Sequence record: SRR31156797_5131
Length of the DNA stretch: 38,712 bases
Reading direction: 5' to 3' (one strand)
Shown here in pieces: positions 1 to 34,727 of this stretch (its first letter is position 1; every line of letters begins with the position of its first letter). The notes beneath the pieces were generated by a model. The model was not told the origin of the DNA. It did not search any database and was given only the letters and a program-made list of their open reading frames with translations. Made by a program: the position numbers and the translations under genes.

Positions 1-115
1 CGCACGAATCCTTTCGTGTGGTTTTTATAACTAAAGGAACGCGATAGAATGGCACACCAATGCTTGGTTATTTCTTCTTTGCAGAGCACGAGCTAAAAGC
101 TCGCGCTAGTGGGGG
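1..115. repeat. GC-rich double-hairpin element at the 3' end of the AIPR gene (truncated by the window edge)
   Basis: Hairpin 1-20 (CGCACGAA-tcct-TTCGTGTG) and hairpin 85-107 (AGCACGAGCT-aaa-AGCTCGCGCT) share a GCACGA motif. They are followed by AGTGGGGG; the AIPR stop codon (106-108) lies inside the element. Confidence 0.6.
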
Positions 116-1845
116 CTTTTACTTTTTAAGTATTTGTTTACCAATCTTTGTTCAATTGCATCCGTAGTATTTTTTCTTTCAACAGTCTTTCTATCCTTAA
201 AATTCAACCCCAATTCTTCACTTTTTAAAAATGCAATAGACTCCTTAAATTTCTCAATCGCCAATTCCTCATTCTTCAACACCTCAATTATTCGACTACA
301 AAACACATCAACTTTTTTCTTGTCTTTTAAACATGGAACTGATTGTGGCGAGACAATAAATCTAAATATCATTAACAATTGATATCTAAACCTACGTGAG
401 GTTTTATCTAAATGATTTTGGTTATAAAACTGTTCAAGCTTGTAGTACGTCAATGCACTTGTATAATATGGTAAGTAATCATGGGACACATTAAAAATAT
501 CCTCTCCCATATCTTTTATCAATTTTCCATAATAACCTGCGACCAAATGTGGTTTATTTAGAAGCATCGAAGAAAAGACCTTAATCTGATTTTCCCTATT
601 TATTATTCTATTCATAGGGATATCAGAGTTCTTAAACTGATTCGTCCTTCGCTCATAAAACAATTTGAGATCATCTTCAGGTAGTGCATTATAATAATAT
701 TCAAGGTTTCGTTGAAATTCAGTTAAGGCTTCAAGTTCAACCGCATCTACAGCAGTTTGATTATTTGTAGCCCTTGTAATTTGGCTTTTAATATCATTTT
801 TGTTGGTAACGATAATCTTAATCGGCACATACATATCATCAATCCCCTCAACACTTCTATTTTCATATAAAACATTACTAGTCTGACAACCATTCACAAT
901 TTGATAATTGGTTATTGTAATATTATCTCCTGCACCTGATATTTCGTCAGCAACTATAGTAACTCCATTGTTTAAAATACAGAAAGAATCTAGATCTCCT
1001 GTTTTCAATGTTCCTGCAATATCTGTATTAACAGGATTATTCTCTTGCTCTAGATAATCTCGAATATTATCGTTGAATACAGATTTCATTTTACCTGTTT
1101 CATCAATGATTATTTTACGAAATTCAGAAAACGGTATCATTCCAGAATAGGCGACTTTAATGTTTGAAATTGTTGGAATTGTAACCTTCTTTTCGAACTT
1201 GATAGACGCCTCAACAGGTTCTTTTGTTTTTCTATATAAACTTTGCAGTTTCTTTGAATCACATGGAAAGAAATTGATATCTTCAAATAAACTTAAATCA
1301 TCAAGTTCTCGTTTATTACTGCTCACAACTTGAATCAAATTTGGGTCTTCCGTCCATTTGCCTGTTGAACAAAAATAGAGATTACAAATAGGATTTCTTT
1401 CTTTCATAAATTTAGAGTTCCTATATATAAACTCTTTCATTTCTATGAAATTTTTCATTTCATTGGTTAGAAACAAATCAGGAGCATCATTAAAAAATGA
1501 TTTTGTCCACCTAAAGAAATTATCAATCAGGGTGCCATCAAATTTAGAAGATGTTTTGGATTGAATTAAAATAAAAGTTACAGTTAATGTTCTGTTTAAA
1601 TTAATAAGTTCTTGAATTTCATTGCTCGAATTGCAAAGTTTATTATTTACAATTATTCCAATCCCATCAATACCCTGAGTGCTTTTTCCTGTTGAAATTT
1701 CTTTTTCATCAAATGAAACAGAGTCATACTCTTTATTTACAACGCAAAAATTTGTGAACATTTCAAATTGCTCACTTGGAATCAGAGAGTTGTAACCTTT
1801 GCTTTCAATAAATTCATTCAAGAAACTCTTAGTTATTGCATCCAT
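106..1845 (-). CDS. AIPR family protein (abortive infection phage resistance)
   Basis: 579 aa ORF with AIPR motifs FNDNIRDYL, FCILNNGVTIVA, YQIVNGCQTS, ITRATNNQTAV, YERR. Confidence 0.9.
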   Translation of the reverse strand: MDAITKSFLNEFIESKGYNSLIPSEQFEMFTNFCVVNKEYDSVSFDEKEISTGKSTQGIDGIGIIVNNKLCNSSNEIQELINLNRTLTVTFILIQSKTSSKFDGTLIDNFFRWTKSFFNDAPDLFLTNEMKNFIEMKEFIYRNSKFMKERNPICNLYFCSTGKWTEDPNLIQVVSSNKRELDDLSLFEDINFFPCDSKKLQSLYRKTKEPVEASIKFEKKVTIPTISNIKVAYSGMIPFSEFRKIIIDETGKMKSVFNDNIRDYLEQENNPVNTDIAGTLKTGDLDSFCILNNGVTIVADEISGAGDNITITNYQIVNGCQTSNVLYENRSVEGIDDMYVPIKIIVTNKNDIKSQITRATNNQTAVDAVELEALTEFQRNLEYYYNALPEDDLKLFYERRTNQFKNSDIPMNRIINRENQIKVFSSMLLNKPHLVAGYYGKLIKDMGEDIFNVSHDYLPYYTSALTYYKLEQFYNQNHLDKTSRRFRYQLLMIFRFIVSPQSVPCLKDKKKVDVFCSRIIEVLKNEELAIEKFKESIAFLKSEELGLNFKDRKTVERKNTTDAIEQRLVNKYLKSKSPH

Positions 1846-1886
1846 AATTTACTCTATATATTTAATTTATTGCACTGTATGATAAT

Positions 1887-2024
1887 TGCATGTAGCGTTT
1901 CGCGGGTATGGCGTCGTGCCGCCGAATCCGCAGGTTTGTTGTTTAGTGTTCAATCGTTAAATTCTCACTTCCGTATCCAGCCGAGCCGAACCGCGGCATG
2001 CGCTATGACCCGCTGTTAGGTGTA
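1887..2024 (-). repeat. attC-like recombination site (138 bp imperfect inverted repeat) between two co-oriented genes
   Basis: The minus strand begins TACACCTAAC (RYYYAAC) and ends GCTACATGCA (degenerate GTTRRRY). Arms 1902-1922 and 1993-2013 form a 20-bp stem on the + strand with two G-T wobbles and bulged G2007 and T1914. It is a GC-rich island in AT-rich DNA. Confidence 0.8.
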
Positions 2025-2905
2025 GTATTGATTATTTCTTGAAGCATTTTTAAATATTCAGCATGAAAATTATCACGGTTTTCCATAGAAAATGTTAAAT
2101 TTTTTTTCCTAACATATGCTAATTCCCATACATCTGAAGTGACTGAATTTTTAAAGGAATTATAGTTTTTAATTAAATCAGATGTGCTATAATTTAATGG
2201 ATCAATTATAGTTGCATCTTTTAGCAACTTTTTAGATTTTACTTTGTCGCCTTTAATAAATTCAATAATTGAAAGATAATAGTATAAATCAGATTTTTCT
2301 AGAAGGTAGACCGAGTATTTCTTAGCAAGAGTAAGATTTTCTTCAGCTTTTATTAAAGATGAATCTACCTGTTGTTCAAATTTTAAAAAACAAAATGCAA
2401 GGTTTATGTTGAGTGTTGGGTCCTTATGTTGATTTAATACATAATTCTGGAAGTCAATGTCATCTTGAAGCTTTTTCCAATGAAAACTACCATTTTGTGT
2501 GTTCTTTGAGTCAGAAACTTCAATAGATGATAAAATCCATAACAAATTTGAAAAATAGTATTCTTTTAACCCGTCATTGATAGTGAATTTCCCAGATTTT
2601 ATATCTTGCCATGACGTGGATATCATACTTAAAGACTTTTCCCAAACTCCATTTTCTGCTAGCCTAACAGCAATGTTTAAATTATCTAATACTTGCATTC
2701 TTTTTGCGACTCTATTGTCAACAACTTCATTTAGGATAATTGAAAGAGATAAAAGTCCAGGAATTGATGTAATACCAATGAATAAAACAATTCTTTTTAA
2801 CCATTTTTTCCATTTATTTATTTCATTAATGATCTCTTTATTCTCATTTAGTTTTGAATCAACTTGCTCCTCAATTAATTGTCTCAAATCTTCAGTTATT
2901 TCCAT
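2003..2905 (-). CDS. Hypothetical membrane-anchored helical (TPR-like) protein, gene-cassette cargo
   Basis: 300 aa ORF with a short coiled N-terminus, one hydrophobic segment (IVLFIGITSIPGLLSLSIIL) and TPR-like helices (NLAFCFLK..AEENL..A; LYYYLSIIEFIKGD..SKKLL..A...DP). The stop codon is inside the attC-like site. Confidence 0.75.
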   Translation of the reverse strand: MEITEDLRQLIEEQVDSKLNENKEIINEINKWKKWLKRIVLFIGITSIPGLLSLSIILNEVVDNRVAKRMQVLDNLNIAVRLAENGVWEKSLSMISTSWQDIKSGKFTINDGLKEYYFSNLLWILSSIEVSDSKNTQNGSFHWKKLQDDIDFQNYVLNQHKDPTLNINLAFCFLKFEQQVDSSLIKAEENLTLAKKYSVYLLEKSDLYYYLSIIEFIKGDKVKSKKLLKDATIIDPLNYSTSDLIKNYNSFKNSVTSDVWELAYVRKKNLTFSMENRDNFHAEYLKMLQEIINTTPNSGS

Positions 2906-2919
2906 TTTTGTTTTTTTAT

Positions 2920-2960
2920 TACACCTAACTAGTTAACATGCGCACAACAAGTGCATATAT
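2920..2960 (-). other. Cassette-start core site / candidate attI-like site
   Basis: Minus strand GTTAGGTGTA (2929-2920) lies just upstream of the ATG at 2905. It is the exact complement of TACACCTAAC (minus 2024-2015) at the far end of the same gene. No attC-type stem lies beyond it. Confidence 0.65.
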
Positions 2961-2977
2961 TTATAATAGTTGGGTTT

Positions 2978-3024
2978 TAAAAGTGCACAATACTGACTTA
3001 TAAGGTATGTATTGTGCACTTTTA
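2978..3024. repeat. Perfect 16-bp inverted repeat with 15-nt spacer next to the attI-like site
   Basis: TAAAAGTGCACAATAC (2978-2993) / GTATTGTGCACTTTTA (3009-3024). Confidence 0.85.
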
Positions 3025-3038
3025 TATTTACCAGTCTC

Positions 3039-3069
3039 CGAAAATACAAATCTTTCTTCGCTAATTCAA
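3039..3069 (-). promoter_or_regulatory. Candidate Bacteroidota sigma70 promoter directed into the cassette array
   Basis: Minus strand TTG (3069-3067), 20 nt, then TATTTTCG (3046-3039), one mismatch from the TAnnTTTG -7 box. Confidence 0.4.
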
Positions 3070-3608
3070 GGAATCATAAAAAAGCTTTAAGCATTACTTT
3101 TTTGTGATTGAATAATGTGCTTGTGATTTATTTCTTTTTGACATGAATGATGAGGTGTTCTATTGCTTTATTGGGCTTGATGTGTATTGCATTTATTGAG
3201 GGTTGTTGGTGCGTATGAATTTAACAAAGCAGTATGAATTTGGAGTGGCTTACAATGTAGTTATTGGTTCTTTTGGCAAGTGTATGTTGTTCTTTTTGCT
3301 TTGTAAGTAATCTGTAAAACAGAGTTTAAGCTTTAGGTGTGGTAATTTTAAAAAAAAGACTAAAAATCAAAATAAATTAACATAGCGAAATGGCTAGTGT
3401 TTTGGTAGGTTTGAGATGTATTTAACTAATAATGAGAGAGTGCAGGCTTGCAAATTGTTGCTAAAAAAGTTTTTTTATTTAATTATAATTTTATAGCTTA
3501 GTTAGTGTTATAGTAAAAATGAGTGTCGACCGACATCGCTTATTTAAATTTATTTTTTTGAGAAAGATTTGTGGAGAGAGATAATATTAATCTTTTAAAT
3601 TTATTATT

Positions 3609-3680
3609 ATGTCTGATCAACAAAATTTACAGGATCACCTGGAAGAAATTAAAGCAGTACCCGAAGAAAATGTGAATTAA
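3609..3680 (+). pseudogene. 23-codon ORF, probably the truncated 5' end of a gene
   Basis: MSDQQNLQDHLEEIKAVPEENVN*, preceded by a typical AT-rich Bacteroidota leader (TTTTAAATTTATTATT-ATG). Protein-like codons end abruptly. Confidence 0.4.
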
Positions 3681-4095
3681 TTCCCCTTTATATTTATTAA
3701 TCATTGTAGTTTAGTTGTGGAGGGCAGAAGTGTCCTCCATATTTTGTATCCGTACATTTGCTTGATCTATTTGTATGCCGGGGCAGGATTTCCGTTACAG
3801 AAAAATCCTTATTTAAACACGGAGGAGGATCTTCCGTAACATCAATTTGACTCTATTGGGGGTGTATTCATGTTATTTATTTGTTTTTTGATTTTCCTGC
3901 CTTAAGTTTGTTGTGAATTGTTCTGCCTGTTTTCTTTGTAGGCAAAGGAGATTAAGCAGTATATTTATCCAAGGAATTGTGCAACAAGTGTTGCGTTTGT
4001 CATAGCGGTTGAGGGCATGATAGTGCAAGCTCAGCTGGATCAGAGCATGAGTGAGTAGTAAACTTATTTTTATATAGCTGAATTCAACTAAGATA

Positions 4096-4965
4096 ATGGA
4101 CGATAATATAGAAAATATATATCACCAGGCTGTAGCGTTACAGTCCTTGCCTTTCGAGATCATTACTTTCGAACAGCTATACGAACGTCATCAGCAAAAT
4201 TTTAACCTCTTGTTTGATTGTCACCGCATTCAGTTTAATGCCTTGTTCATTATTACATCAGGAAAAAGTGTGCACAGTATCGATTGCCAAAAGTTCAACA
4301 TGCAGGCAGGTACAATTATTCCTATGGTAAAGGGTCAGGTGCATCATTTCGAAAAGGAGCTGAATGTAGAGGGAGTTATCATCACATTTCCCGATGAATT
4401 TATTGCCGATAACATTTCGGAGGGGGACCTGATTCATTTTCTACATCTTTACCATTCGCCAATACTGCAGGTAGATAAAAATAACCTGACACTTTTAAAA
4501 CCTTTTGTAGATTTGCTGTTCAGCGAGCAGGAATCGGAAAGTACCTACCTGAAGAGTGATTTGATAAGATCCACATTTCTATCCTTAATCATACAGATAA
4601 AACGCTTAATTCCACATCAAAACATTGCGACTAACAGTGATCGTTTTGTTGATTTTGTAAGATTTAAGAGACTCATAAAGGGGCTATTTACAAAAACTCA
4701 TAACGCCAAAGAATATGCTGCCGAATTAGGTGTTAGCTACAAGTACCTTAATTCTATTAGCAAAGAAAATGGCAATAAAACAGCCAAAGCCTTTATCGAT
4801 AGCTGGTTGGTTTTAGAAATCAAGAGGAATATTGCCGAGAAAAAAACGTCGGTAAAGGAAATTGCTTACAATACCGGATTCGAAGAACCTACCAATATGA
4901 TCCGCTTTTTTAAGAAACATACCGGATTTACCCCAAAAGAATATGCCGAAGAGCTAAATAAATAG
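4096..4965 (+). CDS. AraC family transcriptional regulator
   Basis: N-terminal cupin-like domain (HRIQF..GQVHHF) and C-terminal double HTH (YAAELGVSYKYLN; VKEIAYNTGFEEPTNMIRFFKKHTGFTPKEY). Confidence 0.95.
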   Translation: MDDNIENIYHQAVALQSLPFEIITFEQLYERHQQNFNLLFDCHRIQFNALFIITSGKSVHSIDCQKFNMQAGTIIPMVKGQVHHFEKELNVEGVIITFPDEFIADNISEGDLIHFLHLYHSPILQVDKNNLTLLKPFVDLLFSEQESESTYLKSDLIRSTFLSLIIQIKRLIPHQNIATNSDRFVDFVRFKRLIKGLFTKTHNAKEYAAELGVSYKYLNSISKENGNKTAKAFIDSWLVLEIKRNIAEKKTSVKEIAYNTGFEEPTNMIRFFKKHTGFTPKEYAEELNK

Positions 4966-4971
4966 CTCAGG

Positions 4972-5036
4972 GATCAGATTGATTATTCTTAAGATCAGAT
5001 TGCTTATATCCGCACCAGAGGTCTGATATATCTTTG
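4972..5036 (+). promoter_or_regulatory. Tandem direct-repeat operator (21-bp period) plus -7 promoter box of the redox operon
   Basis: GATCAGATTGATTAT (4972-4986) and GATCAGATTGCTTAT (4993-5007), then TATCTTTG (5029-5036) matching TAnnTTTG. Confidence 0.7.
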
Positions 5037-5427: not shown

Positions 5428-6196
5428 AAAATGGATGCTTAAAGGTGCAATTGTGGCAATCTGTGTATTTGCAAGTGTGCACTCCAGTAAAGCAAATAAG
5501 AACAACATGAAAACTATGAATAGTAAAGAAACAACATTAGCAAATCAGGATGACCTGGTTTTTTACGTGAAATTTCATCTACATCCCGAGTATGTGGAGG
5601 ATTTTAAGAGCAGTCTTCTGGAATTGGCAGAGGCGATGTCGAAGGAAGAGTCATTTGTGAGCACTTTCCTGCACAGCGATCCCAATGATAATACAAAGTA
5701 CACCATCTACGAGCGCTGGAAAGAACCCAGTATGAATGCTTTTATTAAGAATCAGTTAGAAGGAAAAAGCTATCGTGATGATTACGAGTCACACATCGAA
5801 AAATGGAGCGCTACCAGTCGCGAGATATCAGTCTTAAAGCCTCTGAACCAATGGGTGAGTTCATCAAACGAGCCTTCGAACGAAGATCTGGCCTTTTATG
5901 TGAATTTTCATATCAAACCTGATAAAGTTGAGGAATGGAAAGAGGGTGCACTTCATGTTTTAAACAGCATGTCGGTTGAGGAAACTTTTGTAGGAGCATT
6001 CCTGCATCAGGATGCTGAAGATATAGGCAAATTTACATTATATGAAAGATGGGCAGAACCGAATATGGATGCCTTTGTGAAAAATCAGCTTAATGCTAAA
6101 GAGTACCGAAAAGTATATGAGGAGCAATTGCCAGCCTTGGTGGCAAGTCCAAGAACCTTTTCGGTATTGAAACCTGTTCGAACCTGGATAAAATAA
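5420..6196 (+). CDS. Tandem two-domain ABM/quinol monooxygenase-like protein with possible signal peptide
   Basis: Start moved to ATG 5420 (MIKKWMLKGAIVAICVFASVHSSKA), overlapping the upstream stop. Two repeats DL.FYV.FH..P..VE...MS.EE.FV..FLH.D....K.T.YERW.EP.M.AF.KNQL. Confidence 0.8.
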   Translation: MIKKWMLKGAIVAICVFASVHSSKANKNNMKTMNSKETTLANQDDLVFYVKFHLHPEYVEDFKSSLLELAEAMSKEESFVSTFLHSDPNDNTKYTIYERWKEPSMNAFIKNQLEGKSYRDDYESHIEKWSATSREISVLKPLNQWVSSSNEPSNEDLAFYVNFHIKPDKVEEWKEGALHVLNSMSVEETFVGAFLHQDAEDIGKFTLYERWAEPNMDAFVKNQLNAKEYRKVYEEQLPALVASPRTFSVLKPVRTWIK

Positions 6197-11815: not shown

Positions 11816-11996
11816 ATGGTTTTAAAATTTAAGAATAGTTGTTGTTAGGTGTAACTGGTTGGTTGTGAAATAGCGGTAGGAACGTAAAGGTTTTGTAATT
11901 TATAATGAGTCTAGGAGTTGAATGGTGAGTGTTTTTGCAAATGATAATTAATTTTATTAGTACGTTGAAAATTAAGCCACCCTAAGTATCATCGAT

Positions 11997-13901
11997 ATGA
12001 AAAATAATCTTATTGTACTTGTATTTATTTGTTTATCTATAGTGTCTTGTGAAAAGGAAGACGAAGAAAAGAGATTCGGTGGATTGGAAGGTGACGTAAA
12101 AAATAAATTTGGTCAGGGAATAGGTAACGCTCTTGTTAAAGCTGGACTTTCTACCGTTAAAACAAATGAGTCGGGCAGATATCGATTTACAAAACTAGAG
12201 GTTGACGATTATGATATTACTGTTATTGGCGAAACTTTTCTTCCAGAAACAAAGCAAGTTCAGATAATGGAAGATGAAGTAAATCAATTAAATTTCATAC
12301 TCCAAACAGGTGAGCCTACACTTAGTATTTCCGAATCGATTTGTAATGTTAGACCTGTAAAGGGAGTACAATATATTAATGTTGAATCTAATGCAAGTTG
12401 GTTGATTGAAGAAAAGTGTCAATGGATTGAATGTGACCAATCTAAAGGAGAAGGAAATGGAAAAATACGTGTATCCTGGAATGAAAATAATGGGGATCTT
12501 GAGCGACAAGACACCATTTGGTTTAGGGCTGGGGATTTAACTCGGACCTTAGTGGTACTTCAAACCAATAAATTAAAAATATTAGAAATTAAAGGAATTA
12601 TTGGGAATAATGCTGTAGATATAAGAGATTCGGTATATGTGAAATTTAATAAAGCGATAACTATTGAAAAAATTAAAAGTAATTATGATTTGTGTTATTC
12701 TGATATGAATTATGAATTATTAGAGAATAGTACAGCTCTCGAATTTTCATACGCTTGTGCTAAGCTTGGCAAAAGTTATCCGTTTTCAATTCGAGTGAAG
12801 GATGATAAAGGTCAAGTAGCATCTTTCGAAATAGATGTTCCTTTTTTTAAGCATAAACTAGAGTATGAAGGATATATAACTGGCTATGCTTTGCTTAATG
12901 ATGAAAAAGAAGCCGTTATTTCATCTTTTAATCCGCCAAGAGTTACACATTACTCACTCGAAAGTGGAGAGGTTCTTAATACTTTTGATTTATCAAATTA
13001 TTTTTCGCCTACGGATATTTCCTACAACCCATACAATTCTCTTGTTTATTTAGTTGGAGCAGAAACTGATGCAGTTTTTAGGCATACTTCTACAAAGTAT
13101 CCCCATGTTCATACACTTAATTTAACGACAGGTAAGATTGAGAAGGTGATTACTTTGGAACCGGATGAAAATGATCATCCTGACTACCCTCATACTATTC
13201 CTAGTGTACCTCAATTTACTGAAACAGGTATCGGTATTATAACTATGAAAGACAAGGCAGGTAATTTTGGAGGATGGAAGGTTGTTGACTGTACTGGAGA
13301 TACACATGAATTATATAGAGTGGAGAAATCAAATCAGGAGATTAATGGTGGTGAAGCAATTTCAAAGATGTATTTGAATCATGATAAAACGAAACTAATT
13401 ATTATGCAACATTATGGTAGTTGTCAATATTTAATCTTCGATGGGATAACACAAAGTGTTGAGATAGTTACCTCACCTGAAATTACTCGTTCTGGTTTTT
13501 TAGCACCTAACAAAAGGAATAGTAAGGTCTATGTAGGGCAGCTCTATGCACAATTTATTATGGAATTAGATAAAAGTTTTGTTAGTCCAATGTCGTATAT
13601 GGGGGGTGGAAGCCTGGAAGGAGCCGGATTTAGTTATAAAGAAGGCGAGGAGAATATCATTTATTCACTAAGTGAGAATTACTTGAAGCTAATGGATTAT
13701 AATAAATCTGAAACCCCAATGTGGTGTGATATTGAATATGACCTTGATGGTTTTACATCCACGGTTGATGGTAGACATTTGATCGGTTATAAGAAGTACA
13801 ATTATAAAAGTTCGTTCTTTGTATTTGATACTAATCTTTTTTATAAACATTTAAGTACTACGAAAAACAAGAATGTGAAATTGGATAGTAATGATTGGTA
13901 A
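11997..13901 (+). CDS. Surface lipoprotein with carboxypeptidase-regulatory-like domain, BACON domain and probable beta-propeller
   Basis: Lipobox IVSC; G.V....G..I.NA.V......TNESGRY.F..L....Y; VESNASW......WI.....GEGNG.I.V....N.....R; beta-rich C-terminus. Confidence 0.75.
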   Translation: MKNNLIVLVFICLSIVSCEKEDEEKRFGGLEGDVKNKFGQGIGNALVKAGLSTVKTNESGRYRFTKLEVDDYDITVIGETFLPETKQVQIMEDEVNQLNFILQTGEPTLSISESICNVRPVKGVQYINVESNASWLIEEKCQWIECDQSKGEGNGKIRVSWNENNGDLERQDTIWFRAGDLTRTLVVLQTNKLKILEIKGIIGNNAVDIRDSVYVKFNKAITIEKIKSNYDLCYSDMNYELLENSTALEFSYACAKLGKSYPFSIRVKDDKGQVASFEIDVPFFKHKLEYEGYITGYALLNDEKEAVISSFNPPRVTHYSLESGEVLNTFDLSNYFSPTDISYNPYNSLVYLVGAETDAVFRHTSTKYPHVHTLNLTTGKIEKVITLEPDENDHPDYPHTIPSVPQFTETGIGIITMKDKAGNFGGWKVVDCTGDTHELYRVEKSNQEINGGEAISKMYLNHDKTKLIIMQHYGSCQYLIFDGITQSVEIVTSPEITRSGFLAPNKRNSKVYVGQLYAQFIMELDKSFVSPMSYMGGGSLEGAGFSYKEGEENIIYSLSENYLKLMDYNKSETPMWCDIEYDLDGFTSTVDGRHLIGYKKYNYKSSFFVFDTNLFYKHLSTTKNKNVKLDSNDW

Positions 13902-33309: not shown

Positions 33310-33944
33310 GTACTGGTATTATTATCATCTGCACAAATCTTTCTCCCTCAAATTAACATTATAGTTGACGGATATAAATATAACTATAAATTTAGTACAA
33401 AACTTAAGTAAAGTTTACTCATTTCTGATTTGAGCCAATGTTTTAACAAAATTTAACAAGCTAAGATCTCATGTTTTTTAGGATTTGTGAAAGGAAATGG
33501 TGCTTGTTTCAAATGGGTTATCTGTAGTGAATGCCTGCCTCGGATTGTTTAGTGTATTGATATGTAGTGATTTGTGGATTTTTATTGGAGAGGGTGAAGG
33601 AGATAGGTGCTTTGTAGTTTCCATTTAAATTAGAAGAATTTAGATCCTTGGTTTTGTAAATTCAGATGGAATAAAAGGGGTAAGATCGTTGAGCACATAT
33701 TGGTAATATGTAATTCATGTAATATATCATCATAAGTTTAATTTGAAACTACATTGTAACTTACAATGTATTGGGTTTTGTTTATAAGATAGGTAGGAGT
33801 TATGGGTGGATATCTATTGAGGAAATACAGAAGGTAACCTATTTTGGATTTAATCTAAGAAAAAATGACTCCTGCTTAACCTAAGACTTTGTATGGAGAG
33901 ATAAAAAGCTGTAACTTAAGTCTTATTCACTAACACTATCTGAA

Positions 33945-34727
33945 ATGAGAAAAATATTACTTTTTGTGGCGCTGGTCTTGTTTTGTGGTACAAGCATGGC
34001 ACAGCAGGAAACATTTCTGGTTTTTGAGTTTATGAAAGTTACAGATAACCAGGAGATGGATTATTGGGAAACCGAAACGTTCTGGGAGAAAATACATGCC
34101 GAGCGTTTGAAGAGTGGAGAAATTAAAGGTTGGGATCTTTGGTCCCTTAAACCTGGAGGTACAGAGCAAGGCTTTCAGTATTTGGCTGTTACTTTGTATG
34201 ATGATCCGGTAAAAGCGTTGGCTGATGGAGATATTTGGGGTGCAGCTAAAAATGCATATCCTGAACTGACGGATGAGGAGTTGCGTGAGGCTCTAAAGGA
34301 AGGGACAGCTTCGCGGGAACTAAGTAAAAGAATGTTTTTGACGGTTATTAAATCAACTACCGATAATTATAAAATGGAAGTGGGTTCGGTAATGAGAATG
34401 AATTTTATGGAAGCTTTGGATGGTAAGTATGATGAATACGAAAAAGCGGAAATGGAATTGTTTTTACCGATTCATCAGGATAGGGTAGATGCTGGAACGA
34501 TGAGTCATTGGGCACTGGCTAAGGTATTAATGCCATCGGGAAGTAAGGTGAGAACGACTCACATGACATTTGACTGGTTCAAAGGGTATTTGCATTATTT
34601 TGATGCCTATGGCAGAAATGAAGTGTTCAATGTTGATGCGGAAACTCAAATGAAAATTGATGAGGCGATAAAAATGCGGGATTTGAATTGGACTTATCTG
34701 GCAACCATGAAGAAAACAGTGAAATAA
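33945..34727 (+). CDS. Exported hypothetical protein made of two related domains
   Basis: Signal peptide ending SMAQ; internal repeat FMK....E.DY...E..W..IH..R...G....W.L vs FME.......Y...E...F.PIH..R...G....W.L. Confidence 0.8.
   Translation: MRKILLFVALVLFCGTSMAQQETFLVFEFMKVTDNQEMDYWETETFWEKIHAERLKSGEIKGWDLWSLKPGGTEQGFQYLAVTLYDDPVKALADGDIWGAAKNAYPELTDEELREALKEGTASRELSKRMFLTVIKSTTDNYKMEVGSVMRMNFMEALDGKYDEYEKAEMELFLPIHQDRVDAGTMSHWALAKVLMPSGSKVRTTHMTFDWFKGYLHYFDAYGRNEVFNVDAETQMKIDEAIKMRDLNWTYLATMKKTVK

Follow-up and report, generated by a model that had tools for sequence, protein, structure and literature searches.

A probable integron-like gene-cassette array with a predicted anti-phage gene in a marine member of the Bacteroidota

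Introduction

Vibrio is an established case of integron cassettes with defence genes (10.1101/2024.07.02.601686). In Bacteroidetes, canonical integrons are reported to be very rare, nearly absent (PMC9024848; PMC8618304). Gut Bacteroidales carry rAID-1 arrays, for which a XerD-family recombinase, co-oriented genes of low GC content and intergenic repeats likened to integrons were described (Ross et al.; 10.1101/471110, 10.1101/2025.05.03.651265). In print, the cassette system is so far touched on solely for gut Bacteroidales. The hairpin structure, the end rule and the non-coding heads presented below were not found described for Bacteroidota in the literature searched, which left many subscription journals outside. 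This study concerns a DNA stretch of 38,712 nucleotides (sequence record SRR31156797_5131), which as a whole is called the window. Its positions 1-3024 most probably are the head and the first units of an integron-like gene-cassette array of a marine Bacteroidota. The array fragment is probably partly decayed at the junction to an AIPR gene.

Results

The left end of the window carries two minus-strand open reading frames (ORFs) in the same orientation, 106-1845 (579 amino acids) and 2003-2905 (300 amino acids). The GC content is 0.27-0.36 over positions 1-3600 and mostly 0.32-0.45 further right. The ORFs are separated by an imperfect long-range hairpin that is GC-rich and has its arms at 1901-1923 and 1991-2013. 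A sequence-only reading of this DNA had described two AT-rich co-oriented genes with a GC-rich hairpin between them and an exact 10-bp inverted pair bracketing the 300-amino-acid gene. The re-analysis confirmed both: GTTAGGTGTA is present on the plus strand at 2015-2024 and its reverse complement at 2920-2929. The same reading had proposed that the bracketed segment is a mobile cassette in first position, followed by the AIPR gene as the next unit. Coordinates of the features are collected in Table 1.

The site between the genes belongs to a family that forms an array in another genome. A DNA search with window positions 1-4100 against 401 genomes of one order gave matches in four. In genome G1059, the window hairpin (window 1880-2030) had 14 matches with 83-96% identity and E values down to 1e-42, all on contig C111; for the 133-nt site, the identity to these matches is 84-90%. 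Twelve matches are on one strand and extend from ~17 kb to the contig end at 42.9 kb, that is, over ~26 kb; the remaining two are on the other strand, nearer the contig start. The sequence-only reading depended on further copies of the site, and this contig provides them in a relative. Parsing by the hairpin arms resolved 14 sites: 12 have a length of 132-134 nt, and two are short (75 and 98 nt). Aligned with the 12 G1059 sites, the window site has near-identical arms, with a mean column identity of 81%. The consensus fold of the aligned sites has 20 pairs, with compensatory changes in three. All 12 aligned G1059 sites end in GTT; the window site has GCT.

The G1059 array region has 28 sense and 9 antisense ORFs of at least 70 amino acids. 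The cargo consists mostly of unknown proteins, together with TPR, ankyrin, SUKH, SnoaL and Rce1-like proteins, and PADLOC matches were weak. The TPR cargo was compared with the 300-amino-acid protein of the window and is unrelated. End complementarity of 13 neighbouring pairs was 10/10 in four, 9/10 in three, 8/10 in one and at most 7 in five. The low-scoring pairs span long gaps, which include an IS110 transposase gene or sites missed by the parser. The IS110-family transposase gene is located at L110:11328-12707 on the minus strand, inside the array in an 8.8-kb gap between recognised sites.

A second array revealed the rule that links the ends of each unit. With the AIPR protein as query, 401 genomes of one family yielded four matches at E <= 1e-100. 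The AIPR gene of genome G655 (64% identical) has a ~140-nt repeat on each side. This repeat had 28 matches in G655, most of them in one array, which comprises 41 co-oriented sites over ~39 kb. The array is headed by a tyrosine recombinase of 392 amino acids with the Pfam domains Phage_integrase and SAM_4. The recombinase gene is co-oriented with the cassettes, and the sites begin ~27 nt after it. The enzyme matched NCBIfam NF040815 with 231.9 bits (cut-off 220) and the integron integrase model TIGR02249 in two stretches with 212.7 bits, below the cut-off of 265. Among solved structures, archaeal XerA is closest, followed by the Vibrio integron integrase 2a3v; the match to PDB 2a3v also consists of two stretches, the first ending at chain residue 189.

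The proximal cassettes of G655 all start with GTT-N7-AT, and their own site begins with AC-N7'-AAC. Accordingly, the family rule pairs a unit start GTT-N7-AT with an own inverse core AC-N7'-AAC: 10 bases are complementary, and an A/C mismatch is fixed. This mismatch of the gene strand is a G-T wobble on the opposite strand. Scripted scoring found 10/10 complementary bases in 21 of 41 cassettes and at least 9/10 in 30 of 41; the first cassette was one base out of register in this scoring and has 10/10 by eye. In the scripted scoring, 36 of 41 cassettes had A against G at position 11. The N7 was fully complementary in 54% of own pairs versus 0.5% of non-own pairs. A homologue of the G655 recombinase (37% identity) is encoded by G938, from the same order-level sample as G1059 and G1063, with GTTGCCACACAT and a gene following within ~45 nt. 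In G988, the homologue stands beside another gene instead. On this 3.2-kb contig (L116, G988:C288), a gene with cysteine-rich motifs is located directly after the recombinase homologue.

The window follows the family rule at the 300-amino-acid gene. On the minus strand, GTTAGGTGTAAT (2929-2918) and ACTACACCTAAC (2026-2015) share 10/10 complementary bases, position 11 is A against C and position 12 is paired. The limits 1896-2928 that had been proposed for the mobile cassette equal the crossover positions of the family rule to the base. The fit of the window cores to the classical GTTRRRY...RYYYAAC signature is incidental because the N7 of the family is free. The pair is raised above chance because it extends to 12 nt under the family rule and directly touches a member of a recognisable site family. 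This site was also recognised by covariance models for which G655 provided all the sites. With full model length, window 2025-1880(-) ranked first among the 21 window matches listed up to E 10 for model R1 (16.7 bits, E 0.041) and among the 18 listed for model R2 (18.2 bits, E 0.037). An exact hairpin 24-mer, which included cassette-specific bases, had 0 matches in genome contigs and 0 in metagenome contigs. Rfam and tRNA searches of the window gave no match.

Together, GTTAGGTGTA and its complement had three matches in the window versus 0.04 expected from shuffles. The third exact copy (GTTAGGTGTAAC) is located at 11844-11853 on the plus strand, within a G/T-rich intergenic stretch that separates a small PspC-like ORF from the gene at 11997. 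This copy may be a chance occurrence or a secondary site. As a further site of the same kind it was ruled out, with no hairpin beside it.

The 300-amino-acid gene does occupy the first position, as the sequence-only reading had it: its unit is located directly behind a conserved array head. The head of the window has a perfect 16-bp-stem hairpin (2978-2993 / 3009-3024) and a small GCAC...GTGC palindrome at ~2938-2958. Window 2907-3038 shares 72% identity with G1063. The head module occurs twice in G1063 and once in G1166, and GTT-N7-AT follows each time. The G1063 heads consist of a hairpin with a 16-17-bp stem, a spacer, a GTGCAC-type palindrome and ~10 nt. One of them leads a two-gene unit ending in ACTACCCACAAC, followed by a site of another type. 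The other leads a PDC-S02/YhcG PDDEXK nuclease unit (L114 = G1063:C31, ~11,890-13,075). In the same locus, a 67-nt sequence after the nuclease gene has a direct repeat ~5.9 kb away (5,960-6,030 / 11,830-11,897) and is probably another site type. Multiple copies of the hairpin part of the window head are present in the source run and also in runs X2-X4.

Contigs of public runs place breakpoints at the cores. These data are contigs, not reads; they show that joined forms exist, and rates or absence are beyond their reach. Run X1, possibly the source sample, has further contigs that match window positions 32-94, 72-109, 1967-2007 and 2981-3023, the last in three contigs. Run X2 is a metagenome with a related strain. 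One X2 contig covers 81-2929 with 18 differences (99.4%) and continues with 84 unlike bases. A second one has 1004 unlike bases, followed by 2924-5000 with 85 differences (~96%). The depths of the two contigs are nearly equal, 9.18 and 8.99. One contig ends at 2929 and the other begins at 2924; the break is therefore inside the six bases 2924-2929, which are the core. The strain comparison that had been proposed for finding a precise gain or loss at the core thus located a break there. An 814-nt contig of run X4 matches exactly 1896-2017, with 10 differences and 2 gaps, and diverges after 2017, past the AAC. Runs X3 and X4 leave parts of the stretch uncovered, and run X3 has a joint 3055/3476.

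The second unit carries the AIPR gene. The protein of 579 amino acids matched Pfam AIPR with 1.5e-46 and PADLOC AbiU with 2.8e-117, where residues 2-568 cover positions 3-534 of 537 in the profile. This full-length match supports the earlier notion of an anti-phage cargo, and the protein is a predicted AbiU-type anti-phage protein. Homologues are cassettes elsewhere. GTT-N7-AT and its complement flank the AIPR gene in G655 and in the metagenome loci L093, L094/L095 and L096. The metagenome set comprised seven loci with AIPR relatives (L091-L097); no such bracketing sites surround the gene in L091, L092 and L097. Model R2 matched sites flanking AIPR in L094 (39.4 bits) and L096 (26.6 bits). The AIPR cassettes elsewhere start with GTTATATGCAAT, GTTGTATGCAAT, GTTAGGTGCAAT or GTTATATGCAAA; the GCTACATGCAAT of the window is similar, but its core has C in place of T. 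Close AIPR relatives are often encoded on public contigs of just 1.8-2.1 kb, about one gene and its flanks. This length suggests that assemblies of many samples break at repeats on either side of the gene. The claim that AIPR is the next unit stands for its cassette nature in other genomes and falls short in the window, where the 5' core is GCT and no site of the same family follows. Given the GCT at the junction and the lack of a cognate site after AIPR, the AIPR part is therefore probably a decaying remnant that is no longer separable.

The sequence downstream of AIPR is another multi-copy repeat, called repeat B. Its local hairpins fold with z = -3.17 on the minus strand. The repeat has a sharp limit at 108/109 in three different contexts. 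One of the two source-run contigs that match parts of repeat B, 32-94 and 72-109, diverges after 109. Run X2 has a 107-nt contig for 1-108, and G938 matches 1-59 with 81% identity. In a contig of run X4, the 5' arm of a 133-nt-type site precedes repeat B, which looks as if it were inserted into the loop of that site. The R1 and R2 scans of the window did not recognise repeat B. It was ruled out as the AIPR unit's own site of the 133-nt family, as it has no long-range stem and no model match. Repeat B may be a site of another kind, or a small insertion by which the cognate site was displaced.

Table 1. Positions of array features in the window
Feature	Position	Strand	Comment
Array head (attI-like), non-coding	2930-3024	minus	hairpin, spacer, palindrome, ~10 nt ending at GTT core
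Cassette 1	1896-2928 (1,033 bp)	minus	gene and own attC-like site; limits from family rule
Start core of cassette 1, GTTAGGTGTAAT (GTT-N7-AT)	2918-2929	minus	presumed crossover between G2929 and T2928
Cargo gene of cassette 1, 300 aa	2003-2905	minus	long N-terminal helix, then TPR-like helical repeats (predicted)
attC-like site, 133 nt	1894-2026	minus	inverse core ACTACACCTAAC (2026-2015), imperfect stem, loop, 3' ...CCCGCGAAAC-GCT
AIPR unit start core, GCTACATGCAAT	1885-1896	minus	GCT where family has GTT
AIPR / AbiU-type abortive-infection gene (predicted), 579 aa, intact	106-1845	minus	Pfam AIPR, PADLOC AbiU
Repeat B, multi-copy, three local hairpins	1-109	minus	overlaps AIPR stop codon; contig/window end inside or at repeat

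The cargo of cassette 1 is a near-orphan. The 300-amino-acid protein had no match in Pfam or PADLOC. It has 63 distant relatives, and weak TPR_2 matches were obtained for 8 of 37 relatives. The AlphaFold model is all-helical with a pLDDT of 91.8, and a Foldseek search with it gave weak TPR matches at best. By eye, a hydrophobic stretch is located within the long N-terminal helix. The cargo is a putative TPR-like membrane protein. The single close relative is P0001 (99% identical), encoded on a 2,933-nt contig of run X2. Upstream of GTT, this contig reads differently from the window.

A stretch of ~1.1 kb beyond the head (3030-4095) has no ORF of at least 60 amino acids and includes a 23-codon ORF at 3609-3680. 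Its G-over-C skew is strong on the plus strand (0.47 at 3201-3600). The stretch is kept with ~96% identity in run X2, with a 21-nt deletion at 3281, and with ~90% in X4 contigs covering 2973-3847. It could consist of decayed units or a regulatory leader. The motif GAGAAAGATTTGTG...GATAATA is common to 3559-3592 (plus) and ~33340-33375 (minus), upstream of two unrelated genes, and may be a promoter or operator element. Relatives of the SDR gene of the window have at most 52% identity and come from many phyla, which makes them useless for synteny. Two other window proteins led to no close relative either: the best identity was 45% for the 657-amino-acid protein, and for the FtsX-type permease it was 66-68% around G035 and 74% in G988. 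Model R2 had no match in G988, G035, G004 or G810, a result that carries no weight.

Discussion

The window is best read, with good confidence, as the start of an integron-like array. The comparisons show that the site is a family member, that relatives organise such sites in arrays, that unit ends follow a complementarity rule, that the head is conserved and that a related strain breaks at the core. The enzyme, the strand used and the chemistry are proposed by analogy with integrons and from the anatomy. In the order of the minus strand, the head (3024-2930) would be followed by cassette 1 (2928-1896), the AIPR/AbiU unit (from 1895 leftwards) and the other multi-copy repeat, at which the assembled sequence ends. 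The proposed enzyme is a Xer-like tyrosine recombinase with its gene elsewhere in the genome. It would fold the 133-nt site on the bottom strand, where the fixed A/C mismatches would turn into G-T wobbles, and would then catalyse strand exchange at G|TT between this site and the head site or another site. Whole units (TT...gene...site...G) could in this way be excised as circles and inserted at the head.

A distributed system is a tentative extension, possible but rather doubtful. Several autonomous non-coding heads per genome would serve as landing pads for one Xer-like recombinase acting in trans, and the choice of strand would be written in the sites as fixed A/C mismatches that turn into G-T wobbles on the bottom strand alone. 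Such a multi-head, integron-like system, apparently not reported by standard integron searches, may shuffle AbiU, the PDC-S02 nuclease and SUKH among marine Bacteroidota.

Several observations weigh against the array reading. Some concern how easily the signals of the window arise. In the window, plain GTT-N7...N7'-AAC pairs with a spacing of 150-4000 nt number 16 when both strands are counted (8 distinct). Among 300 simulated sequences that match the first-order composition of the window, the mean was 10.7, and 299 had at least one. The 10-bp inverted pair by itself is no rarer than chance. One further pair, 34049/33526 (33526-34049, minus; GTTATCTGTAAC / ACTACAGATAAC, 10 nt), was attributed to chance, with one arm inside an ORF and no hairpin after it; it mimics the cassette rule and is a useful chance control. 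The folding energy of the hairpin was not better than that of shuffles (z -0.83 to +0.09). Pair and fold energy are unremarkable alone; therefore, the case rests on the comparison with other genomes. The R1 and R2 scores are modest (E ~0.04 with a rough calibration), and a noise match of 14.8 bits is located inside the ORF of 300 amino acids.

Other points on this side concern the completeness of the array. The window has two units and then the contig end, and one site of the 133-nt family. The 3' core of this site is GCT instead of GTT. The ends of the AIPR unit share just GCTA/TAGC and depart from the end rule, and the 3' flank of AIPR is a different repeat (B) that forms no long-range stem. 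The breakpoint in X2 comes from metagenome contigs and could reflect two loci instead of an insertion. No Phage_integrase domain was detected among the 33 scanned ORFs of the window. With the G655 enzyme, tblastn of the 38.7-kb window, including the 1.1-kb non-coding stretch, found neither a recombinase nor a remnant. These scans cover the window alone, and the source-run contig stops exactly at window base 1, so that a continuation of the array to the left, as proposed in the sequence-only reading, is a conjecture. A tyrosine recombinase was likewise not seen adjoining the arrays in G1059 or G1063 or in the seven metagenome AIPR loci, and no recombinase gene adjoins the G1063 heads or the window head. 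The excision of cassettes as circles is assumed by analogy with integrons.

The locus could instead be a fragment of a classical integron, a cluster of attC sites without an integron integrase (CALIN), which a true IntI elsewhere in the genome serves. The window cores GTTAGGT / ACCTAAC fit GTTRRRY / RYYYAAC. The attC sites of Vibrio chromosomes are similar in length to the 133-nt site. Integrons are listed for Bacteroidota (PMC8618304), and one complete integron is reported in Salinibacter (PMC9024848). Three points nevertheless make this reading unlikely. The cores of the family are generally not RRRY/RYYY (e.g., GTTGTGC, GTTGGCA). The single array-linked recombinase of this comparison with a full array, from G655, is below the TIGR02249 cut-off, matches this model in two stretches and is nearest to archaeal XerA. 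The end complementarity extends to 10+2 nt rather than 7. In the window, neither the domain scan of 33 ORFs nor tblastn with the G655 enzyme detected an IntI integron integrase.

The hairpin and the other repeats might also be self-spreading intergenic elements, similar to repetitive extragenic palindromes (REP), bacterial interspersed mosaic elements (BIME) or miniature inverted-repeat transposable elements (MITE), or terminators, with the inverted pair as a by-product. Several short repeats are indeed multi-copy in the source run (1-109, 1967-2007, 2981-3023), repeat B has local hairpins and is found in X4 within a 133-nt-type site, as expected of a small mobile insertion, and 10-bp GTT...AAC pairs arise by chance. 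We consider this improbable, since the matches in G1059 are not scattered: 14 are on one contig, 12 of them co-oriented and with single-gene spacing. Self-spreading repeats do not predict the own-end complementarity seen in G655 (54% versus 0.5%), where a recombinase heads the array. A mere coincidence, with an unrelated GC-rich terminator between two horizontally acquired genes and a fortuitous 10-bp repeat, is very improbable: the high chance rate of such pairs and the unremarkable fold energies would allow it, but the site closely matches the 14 G1059 array sites (E down to 1e-42), the unit limits match to the base, position 11 obeys the rule, and X2 and X4 break at cores.

If the integron-like arrays are active, they provide a major phylum of marine and gut bacteria with a gene-capture platform of its own that uses a Xer-like enzyme. 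Unit limits that are precise to the base, a simple end rule and a recognisable head make the mechanism directly testable. The arrays offer a route to new defence and immunity genes, as any cargo between two such sites becomes a candidate. They would also explain why short-read assemblies break at such loci and why an AbiU gene is located beside a near-orphan gene at the end of this contig.

Comparison With Known Systems

Sedentary chromosomal integrons, such as that of Vibrio, and the rAID-1 arrays are the closest systems in print. The integrons share arrays of co-oriented compact units, mostly with one gene, and, as proposed here, insertion at the head. The units end in a site of ~130 nt that forms an imperfect hairpin and has AAC...GTT cores, and the start is complementary to the own inverse core. 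Anti-phage cargo is another common trait, as defence cassettes are reported in 10.1101/2024.07.02.601686. The linked recombinases (G655, G938) differ from those of integrons: they are Xer-like and co-oriented with the cassettes, and the G655 enzyme is below the integron-integrase cut-off. The ends pair over 10 nt plus a fixed mismatch plus one, versus 7 nt in integrons, and the N7 does not follow RRRY. The heads in the window, G1063 and G1166 are non-coding, without a recombinase gene beside them.

The rAID-1 arrays come from the same phylum, and the G1059 array has SUKH, ankyrin and TPR cargo typical of immunity genes. Of the rAID-1 traits, low GC content (0.27-0.36) and co-orientation are present in the window; this comparison was made by description only. 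Unlike the arrays of Bacteroidales with cargo for immunity to type VI secretion systems, the locus carries an AbiU-type gene and has no recombinase at the head. The sequence-only reading had suggested a distinct cassette system. The Xer-like recombinase at the head of the G655 array, which scores under the integron-integrase cut-off, supports this; the novelty is reduced by rAID-1, which was already described as integron-like in 2019.

With CALIN, the locus shares cassette units without an integrase nearby, which in draft genomes are often at contig ends (PMC9024848). A CALIN needs at least two attC sites by the IntegronFinder model; the window has one family site and a head. REP and BIME are palindromes scattered genome-wide, in contrast to the G1059 sites, which are confined to one contig with gene-sized spacing. 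The AbiU/AIPR gene resembles known members of its family in its full-length profile matches and differs in its packaging as a cassette, both in G655, L093, L094/L095 and L096 and in the array described here.

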